Below are positions 1 to 768 of a stretch of 1,088 nucleotides of DNA, piece by piece. Source of the stretch: Escherichia coli. GTDB lineage: Bacteria; Pseudomonadota; Gammaproteobacteria; Enterobacterales; Enterobacteriaceae. Position 1 is the stretch's first letter, and each line of letters opens with the position of its first letter. A program made the translations under genes and the position numbers. The stretch lies in the NCBI RefSeq assembly GCF_003334335.1, contig NZ_QOWQ01000122.1; one strand, given 5' to 3'. The notes beneath the pieces were generated by a model. That model worked only from the letters and a program-made list of their open reading frames with translations. It was not told the origin of the DNA and made no database searches.

Positions 1-228
1 GTCACCACCGCCGACATTCTGACGCCACGACGCCGGGAGGATTACGGTAAGGACCTGTGGAGTGCTTATCAGACCATTCAGGAGAATATGCTGAAAGGCG
101 GAATTTCAGGTCGCAGCGCTAAAGGAAAACGTATCCATACCCGTGCCATTCACAGCATTGACACTGACATTAAGCTCAACCGCGCATTGTGGGTGATGGC
201 GGAAACCCTGCTGGAGAGCCTGCGCTGA
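1..228 (+). CDS. 3' end of an upstream CDS (75 codons, TGA stop at 226-228); conserved island protein, possibly DUF932/YfjQ-like
   Basis: Frame 1 is the only frame open across 1-225; frame 2 hits TGA at 20-22 and frame 3 hits TAA at 48-50. Translation ends ...GISGRSAKGKRIHTRAIHSIDTDIKLNRALWVMAETLLESLR*. It is co-directional with and sits 54 bp upstream of the antirestriction gene, where DUF932-type genes are often found in such islands. Product assignment is from memory of that synteny and is tentative; the 5' end lies outside the window. Confidence 0.55.
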   Translation, partial: VTTADILTPRRREDYGKDLWSAYQTIQENMLKGGISGRSAKGKRIHTRAIHSIDTDIKLNRALWVMAETLLESLR

Positions 229-270
229 TTCAGCCATTACCCTGAAAACCACGCATTTATTTGTCCTTTA

Positions 271-275
271 AGGAG
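271..275 (+). promoter_or_regulatory. Shine-Dalgarno (AGGAG) for the antirestriction gene
   Basis: AGGAG at 271-275, 7 nt upstream of ATG at 283-285. Confidence 0.6.
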
Positions 276-282
276 TCATTTC

Positions 283-768
283 ATGAAAACCATTTCACAT
301 AATTCCACCACATCTTCTGTTTCCGTAACCGCTGCATCAGGGAATGACCAGCCTCAGTTGGTTGCCACCCTCGTCCCTGATGAACAGCGCATCAGCTTCT
401 GGCCGCAGCATTTTGGCCTCATTCCACAGTGGGTGGCCCTGGAGCCCCGTGTTTTCGGCTGGATGGACCGTCTGTGCGAAGACTACTGCGGTGGTATCTG
501 GAATCTGTACACCCTGAACAACGGCGGGGCATTTATGGCCCCCGAACCGGATGACGATGATGACGAAACATGGGTACTGTTCAATGCCATGAACGGCAAC
601 CGCGCTGAAATGAGCCCGGAAGCCGCTGGCATTGCTGCCTGTCTGATGACGTACAGTCATCACGCCTGTCGTACGGAGTGTTATGCCATGACGGTCCATT
701 ATTACCGGCTGCGGGATTACGCCCTGCAGCATCCGGAATGCAGCGCCATTATGCGCATCATCGACTGA
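283..768 (+). CDS. klcA: Antirestriction protein, KlcA/ArdB family (YfjX/YafX-like), 161 aa, complete
   Basis: Complete ORF from ATG 283 to TGA 766-768 with a canonical SD. The translation (MKTISHNSTT...FWPQHFGLIPQWVALEPRVFGWMDRLCEDYCGGIWNLYTLNNGGAFMAPEPDDDDDETWVLF...) matches my memory of KlcA/ArdB-type antirestriction proteins from E. coli cryptic prophages and IncP plasmids. Which paralog (yfjX, yafX or other) cannot be decided from sequence alone; 'klcA' is used as the family name. Confidence 0.9.
   Translation: MKTISHNSTTSSVSVTAASGNDQPQLVATLVPDEQRISFWPQHFGLIPQWVALEPRVFGWMDRLCEDYCGGIWNLYTLNNGGAFMAPEPDDDDDETWVLFNAMNGNRAEMSPEAAGIAACLMTYSHHACRTECYAMTVHYYRLRDYALQHPECSAIMRIID

Follow-up and report, generated by a model that had tools for sequence, protein, structure and literature searches.

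The 54-bp spacer upstream of klcA in an Escherichia coli genomic island is predicted to be an intercistronic gap within a polycistronic unit

Introduction

Relief of Type I restriction in vivo has been reported for proteins of the ArdB/KlcA family, including ArdB of Escherichia coli CFT073 (Serfiotis-Mitsa et al. 2010, PMC2836571). In the IncP plasmid RK2, klcA is a member of a multi-gene operon, kilC (klcA-klcB-korC), whose expression is controlled by KorA and KorC (PMC2836571, introduction).

Among the described systems that resemble the locus analyzed here is 'region 2' of E. coli strain 042 (EC042_2245-2249; PMC6480617), which lies in the same kind of island and has the gene order agn43-yeeR-irmA-DUF905-DUF932-antirestriction-yeeS-yeeT-cbeA-cbtA. 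Bernabeu et al. [quoted passage not shown] In hha-null and in hns mutants, the repression of all genes of region 2 was relieved to about the same extent (PMC6480617). The fold changes in the hha-null mutant were 4.9, 5.0, 4.6, 5.0, 5.0, 5.1 and 4.9 for EC042_2244A-2249 and 2.2 for upstream irmA (PMC6480617), values that come from an allele with an 81-bp spacer and in which multi-copy paralogues may blur the assignment of reads. When checked in the 042 chromosome, the EC042_2244A-2249 tags corresponded to DUF905, DUF932, antirestriction, yeeS, yeeT, cbeA and cbtA.

Two gene clusters of E. coli K-12, lfgABCDE (yfjX-yfjY-ypjJ-yfjZ-ypjF, in the cryptic prophage CP4-57) and yafX-ykfG-ykfH-yafW-ykfI (in CP4-6), have the paralogous order klcA/ardB-radC-DUF987-antitoxin-toxin, with junctions of 8-37 bp. 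The lfgABCDE cluster has been described as an operon in which an lfgA insertion exerts polarity on lfgB, and an MqsA-bound promoter region has been assigned upstream of lfgA (bioRxiv 10.1101/2023.09.23.559088). Finally, the three genes upstream of the toxin-antitoxin pair have been regarded as part of the same operon (Wen et al. 2017, PMC5371832).

Here, we describe a computational analysis of a 1088-bp stretch of E. coli DNA (the window) that contains the 3' end of a DUF932-family gene, a complete klcA/ardB gene and the 5' part of a RadC-like gene. [quoted passage not shown] The spacer at 229-282 is probably an ordinary intercistronic gap in a polycistronic unit, an operon reading that is predicted for this allele.

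Results

Organization of the window

All three genes of the window lie on the + strand, with 54 and 15 bp between them, as read from the open reading frames and from RefSeq. The features to which we refer are the following:

1-228, + strand: 3' end of a DUF932-family gene (YfjQ/YafZ-like), a frame-1 ORF whose translation ends ...LNRALWVMAETLLESLR*, with TGA at 226-228
149-176, + strand: best promoter-like match, TTCACA-16 nt-TAAGCT, inside the DUF932 coding sequence; a candidate for a rival explanation only
229-282, + strand: intercistronic spacer, 54 bp, 39% G+C, without a promoter-like or terminator-like site
229-246, + strand: weak 5-bp stem with an 8-nt loop, TTCAG at 229-233 pairing with CTGAA at 242-246; RNAfold of the spacer, -5.2 kcal/mol
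270-275, + strand: Shine-Dalgarno AAGGAG of klcA, read from the sequence, 7 nt upstream of the start codon; a T-rich stretch at 254-269 precedes it
283-768, + strand: klcA/ardB anti-restriction gene, 161 aa, ATG at 283 and stop at 766-768; Pfam PF03230
769-783, + strand: klcA-radC junction, 15 bp, with Shine-Dalgarno GGAGG at 771-775 and an alternative in-frame ATG at 769
784-1088, + strand: 5' two-thirds of a RadC-like JAB-domain gene (YeeS/YkfG/LfgB family; TIGR00608), first 101 codons, the window ending inside the gene

The 54-bp gap upstream of klcA and the 15-bp junction between klcA and the RadC-like gene had both been claimed earlier, and both stand: the DUF932 TGA and the klcA ATG delimit the former, in agreement with RefSeq, and the klcA stop codon and the next ORF, which runs from 784, delimit the latter. 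The RefSeq boundaries are identical in the corresponding locus of strain Nissle 1917 (99.8% identity), in which the DUF932 gene ends at 9228, the antirestriction gene occupies 9283 to 9768 and the JAB gene starts at 9784, the equivalent of window position 784. The Nissle copy of the upstream gene, which is identical to that of the window, is annotated 'DUF932 domain-containing protein'.

The ATG at 769 comes immediately after the klcA stop codon and is in frame with the RadC-like ORF, five codons before the start at 784. The GGAGG at 771-775 favours 784 over 769 as the predicted RadC-like start. An in-frame ATG equivalent to that at 769 is also present in two further loci, L002 and L003. On the minus strand, an ORF of 246 codons with a GTG start (337-1077) covers most of klcA and of the RadC-like gene, and is probably a shadow ORF of the coding strand.

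The klcA product matches Pfam PF03230 (Antirestrict) with E = 3e-37, is nearly identical to the chain of PDB entry 2WJ9 (E = 1.4e-99) and matches KlcA 2KMG at E = 4e-21; by its domain and by these two solved members, it belongs to the ArdB/KlcA family. The PDB molecule name of 2WJ9 is just 'intergenic-region protein', and we take this entry to be ArdB of E. coli CFT073, the product of ORF14 of a pathogenicity island; 2KMG is the KlcA protein of the IncP-1 plasmid pBP136, and both are of the PF03230 family. This identification of 2WJ9 draws on the CFT073 ArdB of 157 aa that PMC2836571 lists. The full-length RadC-like protein, taken from Nissle, scored 149 bits against NCBIfam TIGR00608 (radc), the cut-off of which is 133.85. 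NCBIfam returned no family for DUF932, KlcA, DUF905, DUF987 or a 214-aa protein encoded downstream in Nissle, and neither DUF932 nor KlcA nor RadC had a match in PADLOC.

Signals in the DUF932-klcA spacer

The first-pass annotation had reported neither a terminator nor a convincing promoter in the spacer, and our scans bear out both observations. A consensus scan of both strands of the entire 1088-bp window returned no promoter-like and no terminator-like site. In a position-weight promoter scan, which likewise found nothing in the spacer, the top pair with a -10 element ending there reached 1.19 bits, compared with 8-15 for reference promoters. The spacer contains no near-consensus -35/-10 pair separated by 16-18 bp upstream of the gene, the arrangement that characterizes a sigma-70 promoter, and 229-282 contains no compact GC-rich stem-loop leading directly into a T-tract, the arrangement that characterizes an intrinsic terminator. 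The nearest terminator-like structure, and the best combination of hairpin and T-tract, is a loose fold of 35 nt at 220-254 (-7.6 kcal/mol) that is followed by TTTATTTG and whose 5' arm overlies the DUF932 stop codon. The stem at 229-246 was also considered as a terminator and was rejected, as the T-tract does not follow it directly. The predicted fold of 200-300 was no better than that of shuffled sequences (z = -0.24), and Rfam returned no family for the spacer, a permissive threshold giving just two chance-level matches, both elsewhere in the window. The sole recognizable signal in the spacer is the strong Shine-Dalgarno sequence at 270-275, and every spacer allele examined retains an AAGGA/GAGGA core there.

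The absence of motifs from 54 bp is the default expectation and carries little information by itself. Shuffled sequences gave, over both strands of 1088 bp, approximately 0.7 sites of the promoter-like and 0.9 of the terminator-like kind, or approximately 0.04 per 54 bp, so that the lack of signals in the spacer says little alone. Negative motif scans are weak evidence, as weak or alternative-sigma promoters can escape consensus matching. In horizontally acquired, H-NS-bound DNA, weak internal promoters are common.

A weak or alternative-sigma promoter in the 3' end of DUF932, for example at 149-176, could transcribe klcA, and with it radC and the downstream genes, from a leader of approximately 100 nt that includes the spacer, making DUF932 and klcA separable, possibly in addition to read-through. 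The match at 149-176 is the top + strand weight-matrix hit both in the window and in positions 7400-9300 of the Nissle locus (L001), with a score of 8.64; this score, however, is reached by 20% of shuffles, and a stricter consensus scan did not list the site. Furthermore, its -35 hexamer is kept just in E. coli-type alleles and is absent in other genera, and its -10 hexamer overlaps conserved D-I/V-K-L codons. With a chance-level score and poor conservation outside E. coli-type alleles, the candidate was rejected as unsupported. The K-12 paralogue of klcA heads lfgABCDE and has an MqsA-bound promoter region, so klcA-led units exist, and SELEX peaks for sigma-38 and another minor sigma factor are located in the K-12 yfjW-yfjX interval, but the window locus has no equivalent of the long non-coding region in which the K-12 promoters sit. 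We regard transcription of klcA from a promoter of its own as unlikely.

Gene order and terminator-like hairpins around the block

Matches to the window DNA were found in 4824 of 5426 complete E. coli genomes, at a median of three places per genome, and the DUF932-klcA junction, with at least 80% of the query covered, was found in 3952 of the 5426. The + strand of the Nissle 1917 locus carries, in order, a GTPase gene, agn43, a yeeR remnant, irmA, DUF905, DUF932, antirestriction, JAB/RadC, DUF987, the gene for the 214-aa protein, cbeA, cbtA, DUF5983, DUF957 and DUF4942. For comparison, 21 loci encoding KlcA relatives were taken from other Enterobacterales species; DUF932-klcA-radC is present on one strand in 17 of these 21, mostly followed by DUF987-cbeA-cbtA. 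The junction has three properties of an operon spacer: genes on the same strand with short gaps, no intrinsic terminator between them, and an adjacency that is kept across distant genomes. Same-strand pairs of E. coli genes less than approximately 60 bp apart are reportedly mostly co-transcribed, according to the distance statistics of Salgado et al. and of Moreno-Hagelsieb and Collado-Vides. The hypothetical gene for the 214-aa protein (L001 10563-11207) is an extra gene between DUF987 and cbeA; most other loci are without it, and the O157 locus, L025, has a short remnant alone (6408-6521).

Hairpins followed by T-tracts were located on the + strand of the Nissle locus and at the two borders of DUF932 in related loci:

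L001 3057-3084, + strand: strong hairpin and T-tract before agn43
L001 8022-8050, + strand: strong hairpin and T-tract after irmA
L001 8331-8360, + strand: strong hairpin and T-tract between DUF905 and DUF932
L001 12818-12844, + strand: strong hairpin and T-tract after DUF957
30-45 nt before the DUF932 start, 19 of 19 loci: hairpin and T-tract, -14.4 to -28.7 kcal/mol, median -21.0
DUF932-klcA gap, 17 loci: best hairpin and T-tract, 0 to -13.9 kcal/mol, median -4.4; window allele, -7.6

From DUF932 to DUF957, the gaps between the genes of the Nissle locus contain no strong hairpin with a T-tract, and one structure that passes the strong filter sits within cbtA. The hairpin that precedes DUF932 is GC-rich and is present in all 19 loci whatever gene stands upstream (for example L001 8331-8360, L023 2602-2629, L005 1742-1769 and L019 2742-2773). 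Its stems vary in sequence yet stay paired, with double-sided compensatory changes at 6 of the 7 predicted pairs, and a conserved TTTT(G/C)NTTTAT comes after it. Conserved terminator-like elements thus bracket the block with none inside it, which is the pattern expected for one transcription unit. It is this comparison with related loci, rather than the spacer's lack of motifs, that carries the weight.

In a count across positions 1500-15500 of L001, promoter-like matches were rarer than in shuffles (6 versus 11.9 +/- 3.5) and terminator-like matches were somewhat commoner (17 versus 12.8 +/- 3.7).

Spacer alleles

There are at least three alleles of the spacer in E. coli, of 54 bp (the window and Nissle, and also E. 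albertii), 81 bp (strains 042 and CE10) and 90 bp (O157:H7). The window spacer corresponds to the last 55 nt (3' end) of the 81-bp allele and is without the first 27 nt. The 81-bp allele contains a weak terminator-like hairpin (CTGAGTGAGGGAATCATTCAG, then CTTTCGTT), which in strain 042 is located at L028 42948-42968 (8 pairs, of which 3 are G-C; -13.9 kcal/mol) and which is found at the same site in L026. The 27 nt that are absent from the window allele hold the 5' arm of this hairpin, and the window allele is therefore without it.

These structures bear on whether the spacer could lower the transcription of klcA relative to that of DUF932 by partial termination, either at the 220-254 structure and the following TTTATTTG or through the action of Rho on a C-rich, G-poor untranslated stretch. 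The structure of -7.6 kcal/mol is followed by 6 T in 8 nt, a weak terminator-like hairpin of -13.9 kcal/mol occupies the same place in the related 81-bp allele, and the spacer is indeed C-rich and G-poor. The 220-254 structure, however, has a large interior loop and falls far short of the strength of the terminator-like hairpins nearby (median -21), and it would be kept open by a ribosome terminating at the stop codon, which its 5' arm overlaps. The resemblance to the 81-bp allele is weakened by the loss of precisely those 27 nt that form the 5' arm of its hairpin, and 54 nt is short for the loading of Rho. Additionally, the fold changes in strain 042 are equal on either side of the DUF932-klcA junction, though fold changes do not measure absolute levels. 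Partial termination within the spacer is thus, in our estimation, highly improbable.

A small cysteine-rich ORF in longer spacers

In several other genera, the gap between DUF932 and klcA is 267-367 bp long and contains an 84-aa Cys-rich ORF (81-86 aa across loci; MPPLPDNAH...SISDDDLCAWC...YRPGELSLC...), the ATG of which overlaps the DUF932 TGA as TGATG. Its approximate positions, between DUF932 and klcA, are as follows:

L016 2676-2930: Cys-rich ORF
L020 2671-2925: Cys-rich ORF
L005 2615-2860: Cys-rich ORF
L008 2588-2848: Cys-rich ORF

This ORF represents a genuine family, which in Enterobacterales comprises at least 200 clusters at 90% identity. It has no family in Pfam or PHROGs and is named 'hypothetical protein', a few UniRef names reading 'Antirestriction protein'. 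The ORF is disrupted in L014 and L021 and is absent from the window allele, which has ATT where the Cys-rich ORF has ATG. Since the longer E. coli spacer alleles still start with TGATGCCGTTT, the window spacer may be a deletion remnant of a lost ORF of this kind, a weak inference. Local alignment of the window spacer with the Cys-rich ORF in six long-gap loci was no better than with shuffles in five (p 0.19-0.44), and gave p = 0.016 in L008.

The DUF932 stop codon, TGA, shares its reading frame with klcA, and no second in-frame stop occurs in the 54-nt spacer (window 226-285). The same open in-frame linker exists in the 90-bp O157:H7 allele (L025 5057-5152), but not in the 81-bp allele or in most other genera, and such a linker is expected by chance in approximately 14% of cases. 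Read-through of the TGA would yield a DUF932-KlcA fusion protein. A preference of spacer lengths for multiples of three was considered and rejected, 8 of 15 distinct alleles (a hand count) being not significant by a rough estimate; the in-frame arrangement is therefore treated as chance, which it probably is.

An independent coding or RNA role for the spacer, as a small-gene remnant, as a read-through linker for a DUF932-KlcA fusion or as a small RNA, is exceedingly improbable. The remnant draws on the presence of the Cys-rich ORF in the same gap in other genera and on the beginning of the longer E. coli alleles, but the window allele has ATT in place of the ATG and does not resemble the small ORF significantly in five of the six long-gap loci. 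The linker draws on the shared frame in the window and O157 alleles, against which stand its frequency by chance and its failure in the 81-bp allele and in most other genera. A small RNA would have to be reconciled with the lack of an Rfam match and of a stable fold for the spacer.

Discussion

The operon reading of the spacer has already been predicted in print. A search of the literature on the cbeA, yeeS and yeeT promoters, on the DUF932/antirestriction/RadC module and on the 042 locus tags found no transcript-mapping data, and we infer both the actual co-transcription in the window allele and the extent of the unit. The spacer would sit within a polycistronic unit carried by a genomic island of the CP4 type (P4-integrase-associated). 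RNA polymerase already engaged on DUF932 would enter the window, cross the 54-bp gap, klcA/ardB and the 15-bp gap, and proceed into the RadC-like gene; transcription would probably continue through DUF987, cbeA, cbtA, DUF5983 and DUF957 to a strong terminator consisting of a hairpin and a T-tract. The sole working signal of the spacer would be the translation-initiation region of klcA, comprising the T-rich stretch and the AAGGAG 7 nt before the ATG, from which ribosomes could start on klcA independently of DUF932. Expression of the anti-restriction gene would then track that of the entire block, silenced by H-NS/Hha under laboratory conditions.

The region upstream of klcA likewise yielded no convincing promoter for the unit. 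There is no good sigma-70 match on the + strand between irmA and klcA. Moriel et al. 2016 observed no co-transcription of irmA with the downstream genes, a result that fits the strong hairpin after irmA and from which it follows that the agn43 promoter is probably not the source of klcA transcription. The distance of 30-45 nt between the T-tract of the pre-DUF932 hairpin and the DUF932 start leaves little room for a promoter, and no promoter-like motif fits there. Rather than stopping transcription fully, the hairpins that precede the modules may be leaky or regulated. A hairpin stands before DUF932 in every locus and before klcA in K-12, with no recognizable promoter fitting between hairpin and gene, and these observations led us to propose that the DUF932-klcA-radC-toxin/antitoxin block could be expressed by regulated read-through of its hairpins, through attenuation or processive antitermination, without a dedicated promoter; the hairpin-free 54-bp spacer would then mark two modules fused into one read-through unit. 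This proposal is speculative, and we hold it to be rather unlikely.

Under the operon reading, the anti-restriction gene of a very common E. coli module is probably expressed with DUF932, with RadC/LfgB and with the CbtA/CbeA toxin-antitoxin pair, and the timing of anti-restriction would follow the control of the whole block, for which H-NS/Hha silencing has been reported. The operon reading is useful for annotation and for the design of non-polar knock-outs. The result repeats a prediction that is already published, and as such has little significance and raises no new question. The possible leakiness or regulation of the hairpins is the one point of mild novelty, and it falls outside the finding on the spacer itself.

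The window locus departs from each of the described systems in some respect. The strain 042 copy has the 81-bp spacer with its weak terminator-like hairpin, whereas the window allele is without that hairpin. In the K-12 paralogues, the upstream neighbour of klcA is a DUF905 gene or pseudogene rather than DUF932. Unlike the window, the K-12 klcA paralogue also has a GC-rich hairpin and T-tract right before its Shine-Dalgarno sequence (L023 9874-9896). At yfjX (lfgA) and yafX this element reads ACGCCAGCC...GCTGGCGT TTTTTATT, the yafX copy being the reverse-strand equivalent of L024 4750-4772, and its stem resembles that of the Nissle hairpin after DUF957 (L001 12818-12844). Should the yfjX-side hairpin be a terminator, transcription from the published lfgA promoter would need to pass it.

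The window protein is almost identical to 2WJ9, and the work on CFT073 ArdB and KlcA used protein expressed from pET vectors and contains nothing on native transcription (PMC2836571). The RK2 kilC operon offers the nearest plasmid parallel in that klcA is likewise one gene among several, but the window locus is not of the kilC type: its klcA has DUF932 upstream and RadC/JAB downstream as partners, and no klcB, korC or Kor regulators are annotated in the locus. Finally, the regulation reported for the island copies is silencing by H-NS and Hha (PMC6480617), as opposed to control by KorA and KorC in RK2.
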